This document shows positions 34,290 to 64,000 of a stretch of 64,000 bases of DNA, piece by piece. The stretch comes from a virus: positions 16,524 through 80,523 of the IMG/VR virus record IMGVR_UViG_3300017991_000008; one strand, 5' to 3'. Under the pieces are notes generated by a model, which saw nothing but the letters and a program-made list of their open reading frames with translations, made no database searches and was not told the origin of the DNA. Numbering within the stretch: the stretch's first letter is position 1; every line of letters begins with the position of its first letter. The position numbers and the translations under genes are program-made.

Positions 34290-34829
34290 ATGGCCGATGA
34301 CAGGGGCTTTTATAGCATGACGAGAGACAGCAGCGAAGAAAAGGTAACCCTTGCCACTCTGGGAACGAAGATGGACACCATGGCCGCAACCCTTGTTTCT
34401 GTAGACAAAAATGTCCGGGATCTAAGTATTGCGCAAGCAAAGACAGAGCAATCGGTGAAATCATCTTGGCATGATATTAACACCTTGAAGAAAACAATAT
34501 CTGAGATCCCCGAAACCTTTAATAAGGGTATAAAAGAGCATGCGGAGGAATGTATAGCCAGGGAACGTGCTCGCAATAAGGCAATAACCTCTGATTCGGA
34601 CACAAAAATTGTACGACCAGATGATTCTCAAATAGTACCTTTGCTAGCCAGAGAACCTCTATCACAAAGTAATTTCAATATTTCAAAGGGGCTTTTGAAG
34701 TGGATGATAATTGGATTTATTATTCTTGGGGCTGGATTCGTTGGAGCCGGCATAGTAATAGGAGCCACCGTTCAAAATGCACCACAAAATGCCGGTGAGA
34801 TTTTAAAACCCATAATTCAAAGAAAATAA
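34290..34829 (+). CDS. Coiled-coil membrane protein (holin-like, end of tail module)
   Basis: N-terminal coiled coil, one C-terminal TM (WMIIGFIILGAGFVGAGIVIG). Confidence 0.55.
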   Translation: MADDRGFYSMTRDSSEEKVTLATLGTKMDTMAATLVSVDKNVRDLSIAQAKTEQSVKSSWHDINTLKKTISEIPETFNKGIKEHAEECIARERARNKAITSDSDTKIVRPDDSQIVPLLAREPLSQSNFNISKGLLKWMIIGFIILGAGFVGAGIVIGATVQNAPQNAGEILKPIIQRK

Positions 34830-35450: not shown

Positions 35451-35474
35451 CAGAAGGGGAGAGAGCAGAAGACA

Positions 35475-35612
35475 TTGTCAAACAAAAAAAGAAAGACATT
35501 AACCCCTGAACAGGAAGAGAAGGTGAATAAAGCCTTTGAGGTTTTTTACGACACCACCTTAACCAAAAAAGAAAAACGGAAAAGGTTGAGGGCTCTACGA
35601 ATCAGAGGGTAA
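35475..35612 (+). CDS. Small basic protein (45 aa, not in ORF track)
   Basis: TTG start after GGGGAGAG; MSNKKRKTLTPEQEEKVNKAFEVFYDTTLTKKEKRKRLRALRIRG fills the gap exactly. Confidence 0.45.
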   Translation: MSNKKRKTLTPEQEEKVNKAFEVFYDTTLTKKEKRKRLRALRIRG

Positions 35613-37659: not shown

Positions 37660-37741
37660 GCACCTGTCCTTCATGGGCTGCTACAGACCGGGTCTTCTCC
37701 CCCGCGTGAAAAGTTTGTAGCGGTCTATCAAGGGCAGGTGT
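37660..37741 (+). ncRNA. Long G-U-rich hairpin in leader of initiator gene
   Basis: 37660-37688 pairs with 37713-37741 (about 28 bp, several G-U pairs, one C-C mismatch). Confidence 0.55.
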
Positions 37742-54171: not shown

Positions 54172-54198
54172 CCCAAGAGGGGGAACAGGAGACAGAAG

Positions 54199-55002
54199 AT
54201 GTTTTTAAAATTACAGAGACCAATAATATTTTTCGATCTGGAGACCACCGGAACCGATGTGGAGAAGGATCGAATAATCGAGTTGGCGGCTATCGAATTT
54301 ACACCTGATGGCATGATCCATGAATCAAAAAGGATGAGGTTCAACCCAGGTGTTCCAATACCTCCAGAGGCAACGGCCGTCCATGGGTTCACAGATGAAG
54401 ATGTGAAAAATTGTCCATCGTTTGGAAGTAAGGCATCAGCTATTAACGACTCTTTCAAGGGGTGTGATCTTGGTGGATACAACATAATTAGATTTGACAT
54501 TCCTATGTTGCAGTCTGAGTTGGGACGCTGTGGTTACACCTTGGATTTATCCGTGGACATTATCGATGTGATGCAAATTTATCATCAGCGCGAGCCCAGG
54601 AATCTGGAAGCGGCTGTTCGAAAATACACGGGAAAAGAACACACCGAAGCTCACTCGGCATTAGAAGATGTGAAGGCTACAATCGACGTGCTCAAGGGTC
54701 AGATGGAGGTGTACGACGATTTGCCACGAACACCGTGTGAAATATATGAACAGCTAAGGGATCCTGACCAAGTGGATTTTGCGGGAAAGATCAGATGGGT
54801 GGGCGACGACATGACACTTACTTTTGGAAAGGAGGCTGGGAAGCCATTTCGGCAGATACCAACCGGCTATTTCCACTGGATAAGAAAGAATGGAGTTGTG
54901 GGTCCAGATGTAATGCACGTCATTTCGCTGGCCATTGACGGTCGATATTTAAGCAAAGAGGAATGGGAATATGATCGAGCACGTTTCAGGGGTAGTAGGT
55001 AG
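54199..55002 (+). CDS. DEDDh 3'-5' exonuclease (Pol III epsilon-like) with DUF3820-like tail
   Basis: FDLETTG, GYN..RFD, H.A.ED; FGK..GK....IP..Y..W. Confidence 0.9.
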   Translation: MFLKLQRPIIFFDLETTGTDVEKDRIIELAAIEFTPDGMIHESKRMRFNPGVPIPPEATAVHGFTDEDVKNCPSFGSKASAINDSFKGCDLGGYNIIRFDIPMLQSELGRCGYTLDLSVDIIDVMQIYHQREPRNLEAAVRKYTGKEHTEAHSALEDVKATIDVLKGQMEVYDDLPRTPCEIYEQLRDPDQVDFAGKIRWVGDDMTLTFGKEAGKPFRQIPTGYFHWIRKNGVVGPDVMHVISLAIDGRYLSKEEWEYDRARFRGSR

Positions 55003-55847: not shown

Positions 55848-56201
55848 ATGGAAATGCAATTCAACCTCATGGATGACGTGGTGAAGAACATTAGCGTGTA
55901 TCTGATTCTTTTCGGAGCGGGTGCCATCACCTGGTTTGCTCGTCAGTTAATACCTGACGAGATAGAGGAGAAGAGGGCTTGGAAGCTGTTGTTACGAGCT
56001 TTGCCGGTATGTATCGCAACCGGTCTTTCCATAATCCCAGGGCTCCGACCGTTGCCCGTTTTGTCTCAGTCGATAGTGTTTGGGGTGATCCTGGGAACGT
56101 TCTCGACCTTGGCATATGGACTTCTTAGGGCAGCGGCACCAAACAAGATCAAGGCGTTTCTGGGTTCAAAATCGGAACGACTAAGTGGGGTCTCAAAATG
56201 A
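55848..56201 (+). CDS. Holin-like membrane protein (3 TM)
   Basis: Three hydrophobic segments, basic C-terminus; precedes spanin-like pair. Confidence 0.55.
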   Translation: MEMQFNLMDDVVKNISVYLILFGAGAITWFARQLIPDEIEEKRAWKLLLRALPVCIATGLSIIPGLRPLPVLSQSIVFGVILGTFSTLAYGLLRAAAPNKIKAFLGSKSERLSGVSK

Positions 56202-56593
56202 TCCAAAAAGTCATCGCATGGTGGAGGGGCCTGCCACTTTTTGGAAAAATCATTTCTGCAGTATTCGTGGGGATCATACTGGTTCTGCTGGTGGTTGTCT
56301 CCATTTTTGCCAAGAGGGGCTTGGCCAGTGAATCCAAGGTCGTAGACACCGCTGTAGACCTGCACGACAAGCACCATGCCGAGAGGATAAAGAACCTTGA
56401 GGCGTTGGACGAGGAGGGCAGGGATCGAGTAGACAAGGCGGACAAGGCACTCAGGGATCTAAACGGCCAGGGCCAAGACGCAACGGACAAACGGGAGGAA
56501 CGTGATGAGGAGCTGCGCGACGCTGATAGCTGGTCTGATCTTGATGACGAGCTTGGTGAAGCCCGCAATCGCGGACGAACCGGATCCAGGTAA
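56198..56593 (+). CDS. i-spanin (Rz)-like protein
   Basis: N-terminal TM plus coiled coil. Confidence 0.5.
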   Translation: MIQKVIAWWRGLPLFGKIISAVFVGIILVLLVVVSIFAKRGLASESKVVDTAVDLHDKHHAERIKNLEALDEEGRDRVDKADKALRDLNGQGQDATDKREERDEELRDADSWSDLDDELGEARNRGRTGSR

Positions 56594-56987
56594 AGAATGG
56601 ACCAGACCGGCCGAGCTTTTTATGATGCCGCCCGGGGAGTGGATAACCGTGGAGGGGGAGAAGCTCAGGTGCTACAATCAATCAGAGGGTGTCCAGATAG
56701 CCCGACTAGTCAATCAGCAACGGGACCTCTTTTATGCCGCTATCAGGTGGGAATCAGAACGTAATGCCTTTGAAGACAAAGTCGGTGGTTTGGAACTCCG
56801 CCTGCAGGCACAAGAGGGTTTGGTACTGGAGCACAAGAATAACGCTGAATGGTACCAGGGGCTCTGGAAATCCACCCGGGACGAACTGCTAAGAATTGAC
56901 AAGTATAACCGGTGGAGATTCGTTCCATGGGTTCTACCGGCTTTAATGGGTATAGCCTGGGGAATCACCTCATCTGTCCGAAAATAG
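56502..56987 (+). CDS. Secreted coiled-coil protein with C-terminal TM (spanin partner?)
   Basis: Overlaps Rz-like gene; signal peptide (AIA-D), coiled coil, terminal hydrophobic helix. Confidence 0.5.
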   Translation: MMRSCATLIAGLILMTSLVKPAIADEPDPGKEWTRPAELFMMPPGEWITVEGEKLRCYNQSEGVQIARLVNQQRDLFYAAIRWESERNAFEDKVGGLELRLQAQEGLVLEHKNNAEWYQGLWKSTRDELLRIDKYNRWRFVPWVLPALMGIAWGITSSVRK

Positions 56988-57016
56988 TTGACATATTTTG
57001 GGTTCGTTGCTAGCTT
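56988..57016 (+). promoter_or_regulatory. Sigma70 promoter with extended -10
   Basis: TTGACA-17 nt-(TGC)TAGCTT. Confidence 0.65.
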
Positions 57017-57021
57017 TGAGG

Positions 57022-57127
57022 GGTCTTCTGGTCTCAAGTTGTTGCGCAAGCAATAACAGAGCTCAGACTCTAAGCACGTTGTGCGTTTGAGGTGTCCCCC
57101 CCCGCCGAGCCCAACGTGCTTTTTTTA
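57022..57127 (+). ncRNA. Candidate small RNA (two long hairpins plus U-tract)
   Basis: Hairpin 57027-57067 with GCAA tetraloop; hairpin 57072-57121 with C-rich loop; T-run to 57126. Confidence 0.55.
57072..57126 (+). terminator. Intrinsic terminator-like stem plus T-tract
   Basis: AAGCACGTTG/CAACGTGCTT followed by TTTTT. Confidence 0.5.
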
Positions 57128-57193
57128 TCCAGATACATGTGAAAACATACAAAGGCATGTTGCAGCATACTGTGGCATATAGTACAAAAATTA

Positions 57194-57265
57194 ATCGGAA
57201 ACCGAACAGAAGTGATCGGAAACCGATCAGAAAGTCCTTGACATCTGCTAAAAAGTGTACACAAT
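57194..57265 (+). promoter_or_regulatory. Promoter (TTGACA 57238) with two upstream 18-bp direct repeats
   Basis: ATCGGAAACCGA(A/T)CAGAA at 57194 and 57215. Confidence 0.55.
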
Positions 57266-57282
57266 AAAGATGAAGGGCAAAT

Positions 57283-57630
57283 ATGAAACGAGTACCGTAT
57301 ACACTAACGAGCGATCAGACGGAGGGGCTAAAAAAAGCAGCGAAGGATTTAGGACTGACACAGGCATCGGAGGTGCTCAGAAATATACTGTTCGGATACC
57401 TGCCATGTGACATTTGGAGAAATGACCATGTTTTACGGGGCAACGGCAATAAAAATGGAACAAGTAAAAACCCAGACCGATCCCCGGGAGGTGGAGAGGC
57501 TGAAACGACTGGTACAACTTCAGGGGGACGAGATCGAGAAGTTGACCAAGGAGAACAAGCAGCTTCGGGAACACCTGGAGATGGTGGAGGACAGAAAGCG
57601 AAATCCAAGCTAGCCACGGTTAGGGGTTAG
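57283..57630 (+). CDS. Ribbon-helix-helix (CopG-like) regulator, low-complexity tail
   Basis: KRVPYTLT..Q.E.LK..AK.LG.T.ASEVLR.IL. Confidence 0.6.
   Translation: MKRVPYTLTSDQTEGLKKAAKDLGLTQASEVLRNILFGYLPCDIWRNDHVLRGNGNKNGTSKNPDRSPGGGEAETTGTTSGGRDREVDQGEQAASGTPGDGGGQKAKSKLATVRG
57428..57613 (+). CDS. Nested small coiled-coil protein
   Basis: GGAGA SD at 57416; EVERLKRLVQLQGDEIEKLTKENKQLREHLE heptads. Confidence 0.5.
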   Translation: MFYGATAIKMEQVKTQTDPREVERLKRLVQLQGDEIEKLTKENKQLREHLEMVEDRKRNPS

Positions 57631-57725
57631 GTTTGTCTGCTGGGGCTCCCATCGAAGGGGACATATTTGTCGTTCGGAACTATTCTAGCGGGGGCTTGGG
57701 ATAGTAGAGAGACAGGAGACATAGC

Positions 57726-58415
57726 ATGAACGACGAGACCAAATACTGGCCGAGGTTATTTAGAACCTTCCTTATGGAAGCAATCCAAGAAGGACGCAAA
57801 AACCAAACTCGAAGACCTCTGACACCGCGTAATACGTGGTTTGACGGTAACCCCTGGCCACAGTGGGCGAGCTCAAACTTGAGTCAATGGGATTGGGACA
57901 ACGCGTTTGTAGACCAGGGACCGTCCCCCGTGGGGAACCCTGGTCCATATCTACACTTGCCGCATATTGATAAAGAGACCTTTGGAACGCATAGGATTTA
58001 CCCACGAGTGAGACCTGGGGATGTATTCTGGCCAAAGGAGACATTCACGTATTCCACCATCGTATCATCTACGGATCCGAAGGTGGATTTTGGTGACCGT
58101 CGGGTGCTCTATAAAGCTGCTTGTGATCCAGTGGAGAGGAGCATTATTGACGGTTCGTGGAAGGCATCTATCTTTCTCAGGTTTGTGGACCGGCGATTTG
58201 ATTTGCCCATCAACAAGGTGCGGATCGAGAGGGTACAGGATATTTCTGAAGAGGACGCGAAGGGTGAGGGGGTGGAGCCCGATTTTGAAACGAACAGCTA
58301 CATTGATAGCTTCATGTTTAAGTGGGACGAGATATACGGCAAACGCCCAGAAAGATGGGACAGAAATTGGTGGGTGATAGCCTACAATTTCGATAAGCAG
58401 GAGGTACAGGAATGA
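57726..58415 (+). CDS. ASCH/PUA-like phage protein
   Basis: AI.EGRK.QTRR, PGD..W.KETF, W..SIF...I..VR.ER.QDISEEDA..EG, W...WV....F. Confidence 0.7.
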   Translation: MNDETKYWPRLFRTFLMEAIQEGRKNQTRRPLTPRNTWFDGNPWPQWASSNLSQWDWDNAFVDQGPSPVGNPGPYLHLPHIDKETFGTHRIYPRVRPGDVFWPKETFTYSTIVSSTDPKVDFGDRRVLYKAACDPVERSIIDGSWKASIFLRFVDRRFDLPINKVRIERVQDISEEDAKGEGVEPDFETNSYIDSFMFKWDEIYGKRPERWDRNWWVIAYNFDKQEVQE

Positions 58416-59371
58416 TTTGGCTTATATTAGTAGCCCTTCTGGTGGGGTGTGGAGCCCCTGGGGAACGATTTGATACCGATACCGACACTGACACTGATAC
58501 CGACACAAACACCTATTTCGACACCGATACTGAAACCGATACAAATACAGAAGAAGATACGGACACTTCCACCGACACCGGTACCGACACTGACACCGGC
58601 ACAGACTCTGATATTGACACCGATACAGATACCGACACTGACACAGACACCGATGCGGATACGGACACCGATACCGACACTGATACCGACACCGATACGG
58701 ACACCGATACCACGCCGGAGGAGTGTCCGTTTGAATGTATGCCAGGGGCGGAATGTTACGGAATAATTCATGATTATCCTTGTCCAGGACCGGAGGTGTG
58801 TTGTGAGCAAGGAACGGGAGACACCGACACTGATACAGATACCGATACTGACACGGACACAGATTCCGATACGGATACTGACACGGATACTGACACCGAT
58901 ACCGACACTGATACGGATCCAGAGCCCGGTCCCTGTGGTCTCGTGGATATTCCCGACGGTGTTTACTGTGATGAGACAACCGGGTTTTTGTGGTGGATTG
59001 ATCCGCTTGAAGAAATAACGCACGAGAGTGCGGTCACGATCTGTGAATCCTCATCGTTTGCAGGGCTGACCGAATGGCGAATACCAACCTTTGACGAGGC
59101 TCGATCCCTTATACGTGGCTGCCCGGTGACGGAAACCGGTGGTACTTGTGAGGGTGAATTCGGAGATGATCCATGCGACGGCAGTTGTAACTGGCAGGAG
59201 GGACCGGGACCAGGTGGGTGTTATTGGCCAGACGAGTTTGGTGATCAGTGTGGCAACTGGGTAGCCGTCTGGGAGGGATGGCGAATTAGATACATAAACG
59301 CCGAGGTCCATCCCTATGGTTGGAGTACGACGATCCTTTTCGACTTGAGATGCTTACACGATCCGCTATAA
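58412..59371 (+). CDS. Lipoprotein with (DT)n linkers, Cys-rich module and Lcl/DUF1566-like C-terminal domain
   Basis: Lipobox LLVG-C13; D..TG.LW, A...C......G...WR.PT..E..SL. Confidence 0.8.
   Translation: MIWLILVALLVGCGAPGERFDTDTDTDTDTDTNTYFDTDTETDTNTEEDTDTSTDTGTDTDTGTDSDIDTDTDTDTDTDTDADTDTDTDTDTDTDTDTDTTPEECPFECMPGAECYGIIHDYPCPGPEVCCEQGTGDTDTDTDTDTDTDTDSDTDTDTDTDTDTDTDTDPEPGPCGLVDIPDGVYCDETTGFLWWIDPLEEITHESAVTICESSSFAGLTEWRIPTFDEARSLIRGCPVTETGGTCEGEFGDDPCDGSCNWQEGPGPGGCYWPDEFGDQCGNWVAVWEGWRIRYINAEVHPYGWSTTILFDLRCLHDPL
58472..58918. repeat. Two Asp-Thr coding hexamer tracts (58472-58711, 58820-58918)
   Basis: GA(C/T)AC(N) repeats with free synonymous variation. Confidence 0.9.
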
Positions 59372-63946: not shown

Positions 63947-64000
63947 GGGACATTGGTCTAATGGTAGGGCGCTGGCCTGTCGAGCCAGATGGTACCGGTT
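63947..64000 (+). tRNA. tRNA-Asp(GTC), 3' part beyond window
   Basis: GGGACAT acceptor 5' arm, D-arm GTCT-AATGGTA-GGGC, perfect anticodon stem CTGGC/GCCAG with loop CT-GTC-GA, start of T-arm ACCGG-TT. Confidence 0.85.

Follow-up and report, generated by a model that had tools for sequence, protein, structure and literature searches.

The question raised here is what an uncultivated phage encodes in the gap behind a lysis-like gene cassette, in a window of 64,000 nucleotides (nt) from the IMG/VR virus record IMGVR_UViG_3300017991_000008. An earlier reading of this window, made from the letters alone (the sequence-only reading), had placed a promoter and a stand-alone small RNA of about 105 nt in this gap. 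Our analysis indicates that a conserved, uncatalogued small RNA gene is very probably real at this site, since the promoter and several invariant blocks are conserved and base pairs covary in two related phages. With regard to its function, we lean towards a phage-encoded small RNA (sRNA) that acts in trans and would use two contact points to lower the translation of several of the phage's own genes.

Structure and conservation of the small RNA unit

All elements of the near-consensus promoter described earlier (TTGACA, 17 nt, TG, TAGCTT) were located (Table 1); a simple consensus scanner overlooks this site owing to its hexamer rule. In sigma70 promoters the usual start of transcription lies 7 nt past the -10 hexamer, and by this geometry the transcript is predicted to begin at a G and to comprise 104 nt, close to the length first proposed. 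The unit, a stretch that had been described as free of open reading frames (ORFs), contains no ATG. Its fold has a minimum free energy of -42.8 kcal/mol (z = -4.1 against shuffles), and the second hairpin with an apical C tract and a U-run was recovered as a C8 run (57096-57103) and a U7 run. This C8 run is the sole run of seven or more C on the plus strand of the genome. The GNRA hairpin of the sequence-only reading is present with its GCAA loop, but this tetraloop is not kept in the relatives, which have 9-nt pyrimidine-rich loops there, so that the feature appears to be incidental.

The two relatives, L011 and L014, were reached through protein searches with the upstream cassette, and both phages are syntenic. 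Their flanking proteins are 57-62% identical to those of the window and four-fold degenerate sites are 31-34% identical; synonymous sites are thus nearly saturated. Both phages retain TTGACA, TTGCTA, GUCUUCUG, UCAG, a run of seven to eight C and the U-run, and in all three members GUCUUCUG lies exactly 7 nt past the -10 hexamer. Conservation extends to the lower stem of hairpin 1 with its bulge. When only L011 and L014 are used to build a covariance model, the unit of the window is recovered at 57021-57126 with 23.8 bits (E 2e-4; next match E 1.2), and the model detects one copy per genome. In the three-member alignment 98% of cells are paired and 8 pairs show two-sided changes (0 of 500 shuffles; slid controls lower). 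The covariation check in relatives that had been suggested is thereby answered for the terminator stem, in which seven of nine pairs carry compensatory changes on both sides. The plus strand is favoured by folding asymmetry in only two of the three members.

The strongest covariation is found in the terminator stem and the unit lies directly behind the cassette, as would be expected if the element were only the terminator of the lysis-like genes and the promoter-like sequence had arisen by chance. However, the conserved -35 and -10 elements, the invariant 8-mer at a fixed distance from the -10 hexamer, hairpin 1 and the C-loop are not needed for termination and yet survive the near-saturating divergence, and we consider this explanation very improbable. 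A cis-acting leader or attenuator, at which conditional read-through drives the downstream genes as in lambda pR'-tR', nut or put, seems improbable to us too, though to a slightly lesser degree. The order of promoter, leader and terminator fits such a device, and the layout follows the cassette in five phages, across which the synteny of the cassette is kept. Against this, a separate conserved promoter and operator-like repeats precede the next gene, which encodes a ribbon-helix-helix (RHH) protein, so that the downstream genes are independent of read-through, and no conserved alternative antiterminator fold was observed.

Two of these phages, L015 and L034, are more distant and share the cassette. 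At the same spot a similar promoter is found together with two hairpins in about 95 nt and a U-run; we treat these units as positional analogues because the covariance model gives them no score. The analogues (L015:2028-2125 and L034:331-420) share AUUCCAUC and CCUUU, which are complementary to the start signals AUGGAA and AAAGG, and possibly represent a second family of RNAs directed against ribosome-binding sites (RBSs). The L015 analogue can form 11 bp with a start region of its own phage (5 of 300 shuffles).

The search in Rfam 15, with the C4 and 6C models included and with gathering and E-value thresholds, gave no real match for any of the three members, and the comparison proposed by the sequence-only reading thus ended without a family. 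The best match was anti-hemB (21 bits against a cut-off of 49.5) and is driven by the terminator; the sole RybB match (E 6.4) is terminator-only noise. Pxr (RF01812), considered for its similarity, was discarded with no model match at E up to 10, and a presumed second copy at 34414 turned out to be a chance match within an ORF. When viral and genome collections were scanned with exact and gapped patterns, all matches were due to chance, and the covariance model scores none of them. BLAST against GenBank phages gave nothing relevant and distant radical-SAM relatives no convincing copy. Among about 300 genomes sampled from the phyla to which a Myxococcota bin and a Syntrophaceae bin belong, none yielded a convincing chromosomal homolog, and one match with E 0.03 came without the layout.

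Complementarity to phage start regions

For the analysis of targets we scanned 227 start regions, comprising 137 of the window genome, 65 of the L014 phage and 25 of L011. The exact complement of the seed, CAGAAGAC, was first noticed directly before a start codon during the reading of intergenic regions. The sense strand of the window genome contains it 8 times, with 4 copies inside start regions, a number reached by 2 of 420 permutations of the seed (one being the seed itself) and by 0.13% of pyrimidine-rich 8-mers. With at most one G-U pair allowed, the seed complement is present in 8 of the 227 start regions across the three phages. All 8 have GGGG further upstream, compared with 54 of the 219 others (25%; Fisher p 2e-5, or about 5e-4 with ortholog pairs counted once). 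The combined count of seed and GGGG reaches 7 and ranks first among the 420 permutations, whose mean is 0.28. The elements on the target (GGGG, Shine-Dalgarno (SD) sequence, seed site, AUG) are ordered antiparallel to those on the RNA (seed, anti-SD extension, C-loop), and the spacing ranges between about 3 and 40 nt, a point against a single duplicated linker.

The sequence-only reading had attributed pairing with G-rich SD regions to the C-rich loop. Pairing at the RBS is supported by our data, but a scan with the C-loop alone gave no target common to the phages and did not favour the holin start. The strongest target signal comes from the invariant 5' 8-mer together with its anti-SD extension, which had been missed before, and the C-loop is probably the second contact. 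The extension reads CUCCCUG in L011 and UUUCCU in L014. In the predicted fold the first 4 nt of the seed are unpaired and form a toehold, whereas the remaining seed is masked by the lower stem of hairpin 1.

Net binding after unfolding amounts to -11 to -17 kcal/mol at the best sites. With unfolding costs included, the genes with a seed site occupy ranks 1, 2, 3, 6, 7 and 24 among the 137 start regions of the window genome, and in L011 such a gene is first of 25. In the L014 phage, the ortholog of the first site (tblastn 7e-12, 38% identity) is preceded by CAGAAGGC-AUG, which keeps the seed match with one G-U pair and adds 6 bp over the SD. Here, the site was predicted in the window genome first and then tested in an independent genome; by hybrid energy it ranks first of the 65 start regions, and its SD-AUG spacer is the most conserved among 37 ortholog pairs. 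The DnaQ-like exonuclease start of L011 could pair with the RNA of the same phage over 16 bp (8 + 8 bp around one mismatch; rank 1 of 25) at -25.6 kcal/mol, found in 1 of 300 shuffles, and the L014 exonuclease start has neither the seed site nor GGGG. Orthologs of ORF 57726 retain AGGAGAC. Further predicted targets are early genes at G000:C1:90997 and 91567 and an ORF before the large terminase. An ortholog pair (G000:C1:87316, window-scale 70793, and L038:7220) has G5 as its SD and matches the seed over 7 nt within the first codons; this could be a further target or a lysine-codon artefact.

Several points weigh against a function on the phage's own start regions. The L014 phage has the 8-mer site in only 1 of 65 start regions, which falls to rank 13 of 65 when the unfolding of hairpin 1 is charged. 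A shuffle test on the best ortholog pair was not significant (57 of 360, p about 0.16), and cognate pairs of RNA and target were not systematically stronger than crossed pairs. The p-values are optimistic, because the targets were noticed post hoc, after other ideas had failed. The seed resembles a generic anti-SD sequence, repeated RBS linkers in the window genome (CGGTTTTC) can yield four sites by descent, and the free toehold has 4 nt only. With regard to single targets, the exonuclease site of the window is weak (rank 24 of 137) and the ORF at TTG 35475 is only putative. Finally, the family comprises three phages, the pair counts come from an alignment of three rows fitted to the structure, and the relatives were covered over 38 kb (L014) and 13 kb (L011).

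A real small RNA that acts mainly on host mRNAs, by its anti-SD-like seed and C-loop, with the phage sites secondary or due to a shared RBS style, is an unlikely alternative. The C-rich loops of 6C RNA bind G-rich mRNA without chaperones (PMC6486639), PreS and DicF are phage sRNAs that act on host mRNAs (PMC12197685), and the seed is invariant although the phage targets differ between the relatives. What host targeting leaves unexplained is the enrichment of exact seed and GGGG sites in phage start regions, as well as the 16-bp match in L011.

Somewhat less likely again is a protein-binding RNA (decoy, antitoxin or anti-defence element) in which the conserved letters form a protein site. A decoy or antitoxin had also been considered in the sequence-only reading, and we found no support for it. 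The stand-alone promoter and terminator and the conserved, bulged lower stem of hairpin 1 would suit such a role, as would the fact that GUCUUC and a C-run after it are seen again in the replication-initiator leader at 37692 and within the apical loop of L034. However, no antitoxin or decoy in Rfam was matched, no conserved small toxin ORF lies within or opposite the unit, and the invariant letters are the complement of the start-region motif of the phage and not a copy of it. The replication-initiator leader itself (window 37660-37741) can form a long hairpin with GUCUUC, a word of the sRNA 5' end, and then the C-run at its apex, and GAAGAC is found in a short upstream ORF just downstream of this hairpin.

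For the trans-acting RNA that we favour, the sequence, its conservation, the covariation and the complementarity statistics were observed directly; transcription, pairing in vivo, repression and the order of contacts are inferred. Judging by the conserved signals, a host polymerase of the sigma70 type would transcribe about 104 nt and stop at the intrinsic terminator of the unit. The resulting RNA would expose two pyrimidine elements, the toehold and seed at its 5' end and, at the apex of the terminator hairpin, the C-loop. First contact may be made by the C-loop with GGGG upstream of the RBS of the target. Subsequently, the 5' end would open the lower stem of hairpin 1 and pair over 12-16 bp with the SD and the spacer between SD and AUG, by which, given the complementarity, ribosome entry could be blocked. 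Translation of the targets would be damped or timed as the RNA accumulates, which is more plausible than immunity because the phage appears to be non-integrating. Hairpin 2 probably also terminates the transcripts of the lysis cassette. A tentative extension, which we hold to be possible but somewhat less likely than not, is that in a phage without integrase one RNA governs a small regulon of replication, recombination and early genes by a two-part RBS code (GGGG and CAGAAGAC), which genes enter or leave by gaining or losing both parts together.

Genomic surroundings

The phage genome holding the window is complete (95,380 bp, with direct terminal repeats; JGI record 3300018080). A search of it for tyrosine integrase, serine recombinase and ParA found none. 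The stop codon of the upstream cassette directly adjoins the promoter of the small RNA. One cassette gene is presumed to encode a holin-like membrane protein, and the Rz-like spanin was assigned by a match to phrog_1403 (E 8e-4).

Table 1. Positions in the window of the small RNA unit, its neighbours and predicted targets
Feature	Position	Strand	Description
Upstream three-gene cassette	55848..56987	+	Putative holin-like membrane protein, Rz-like spanin, third ORF
Sigma70-type promoter	56988..57016	+	TTGACA 56988-56993, 17-nt spacer, TG 57008-9, TAGCTT 57011-57016
Predicted small RNA	57023..57126	+	About 104 nt; predicted +1 is G57023, 7 nt past the -10 hexamer
Invariant 5' seed GUCUUCUG	57023..57030	+	Begins at the predicted +1 in each of the three phages
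Anti-SD extension	57031..57035	+	One purine, then pyrimidines UCUC
Hairpin 1	57027..57067	+	GCAA loop 57046-49; upper stem and loop variable
Hairpin 2 and tail	57072..57126	+	Hairpin 57072-57121, covarying terminator stem, apical C-rich loop, U7 at 57120-57126
Downstream region	57185..57630	+	Operator-like repeats, separate promoter (57238), RHH gene
Putative 45-codon ORF (TTG 35475) before recE/recT, predicted target	35456..35477	+	G4, then exact CAGAAGAC; rank 2/137
DnaQ-like exonuclease start region, predicted target	54179..54201	+	G5, then CAGGAGAC overlapping CAGAAG-AUG
ORF 57726 start region, predicted target	57690..57728	+	G5, then CAGGAGAC over the SD; rank 7/137

The RHH assignment is based on an RHH_1 match of the L014 ortholog. 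Before its promoter, GATC-containing direct and inverted operator-like repeats (57185-57235), with related repeats in L011 and L014, are a probable site of autoregulation. The RHH frame (57283-57630, about 112-115 codons) is open in the window, L011 and L014, as is an overlapping +1 frame (57425-57613) for a coiled-coil peptide of about 60 amino acids, and the overlap is described as a conserved dual-coding stretch or programmed frameshift. Further downstream, a promoter-like site before ORF 57726 (57659-57687) has GACATATTT in common with the promoter of the small RNA. A lipoprotein-like ORF (58412-59371) combines long Asp-Thr repeats with a C-terminal Lcl domain, a weak hint to a Myxococcota-like (myxobacterium-like) host.

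The 5' part of a tRNA-Asp(GTC) gene was detected at the edge of the window (63947-64000), and over the 38 kb covered of the L014 phage ARAGORN reported no tRNA. Directly after a tRNA-Met gene, at G000:C1:91453-91532 (L040:3954-4033), a tRNA 3' half lies upstream of the matching 5' half. Rejoined in normal order, at an arbitrarily chosen junction, the two halves pass ARAGORN at a relaxed threshold, and the locus resembles a tRNA-like gene in circularly permuted form, or a relic of one. A cluster of QueD, QueE-like radical SAM, FolE and QueC-like genes (G000:C1 about 82040-86100 and L038:1963-5478), identified by Pfam on the L014 phage and by orthologs in the window genome, suggests 7-deazaguanine DNA modification.

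Relation to known RNAs and significance

On the sequence level, the unit resembles the class of trans-acting base-pairing sRNAs: it has an apparent promoter of its own, a predicted intrinsic terminator, no ORF and a conserved seed complementary to translation-initiation regions, one null test of this complementarity being not significant. In RybB-type sRNAs, a conserved seed occupies the very 5' end and a terminator the 3' end. Both features are shared by the RNA described here, although its seed is, unlike that of RybB, largely masked by a hairpin.

Among phage RNAs, the C4 antisense RNA of P1 and P7 blocks a phage RBS by short loop elements (PMC12197685). Both RNAs are small, phage-encoded and expose short stretches of complementarity, and the block of an RBS on the phage's own mRNA is known for C4 and predicted here. 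In contrast to C4, our candidate combines a promoter and terminator of its own with two hairpins, carries a 5' seed together with a C-loop and is predicted to act on several distant targets. Furthermore, the C4 and CI immunity RNAs are located in the immunity operon of temperate phages and have their target in the same operon, whereas this unit lies between lysis-like and RHH genes; a role in immunity is not indicated, because the phage is without integrase or ParA. The CI RNA of satellite phage P4 pairs with two target sequences, seqA and seqC (PMC4825925), and two separate target sequences are also predicted here. However, P4 CI is processed from the transcript that it controls and causes termination, whereas this RNA looks like a primary transcript that acts in trans on start regions.

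Of the chromosomal RNAs, 6C of Actinobacteria (PMC6486639) is similar in its length of about 100 nt, its exposed C-rich loop for G-rich mRNA and its multiple targets, but it has two C-rich loops, whereas a single C-loop, placed in the terminator hairpin, and a 5' seed are found here. Pxr of myxobacteria (RF01812; PMC5684412) likewise has a length of about 100 nt and is built of stem-loops and a terminator. It differs by a predicted sigma54 promoter, three stem-loops and the linked two-component system pxrR/pxrK, as opposed to the sigma70-type promoter and the lysis-like genes upstream of this unit. The RNA is therefore best read as not belonging to the C4, CI, 6C or Pxr families, though it would work like C4 and 6C.

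The phage antisense RNAs against own genes that we found described (sar, OOP, aQ, C4 and CI) mostly concern one transcript and lysogeny (PMC12197685, PMC4825925), and our literature search, itself incomplete, revealed no description of this family or of a comparable multi-target phage regulon. The two-part site permits an exact compensatory-mutation test in E. coli reporters, for which the native host is not needed. In addition, the RNA represents a new family and offers a template for compact repressors. If the proposed function is true, lytic development would gain a further level of control, that of translational timing, from a multi-target trans-acting RNA in a phage without integrase.
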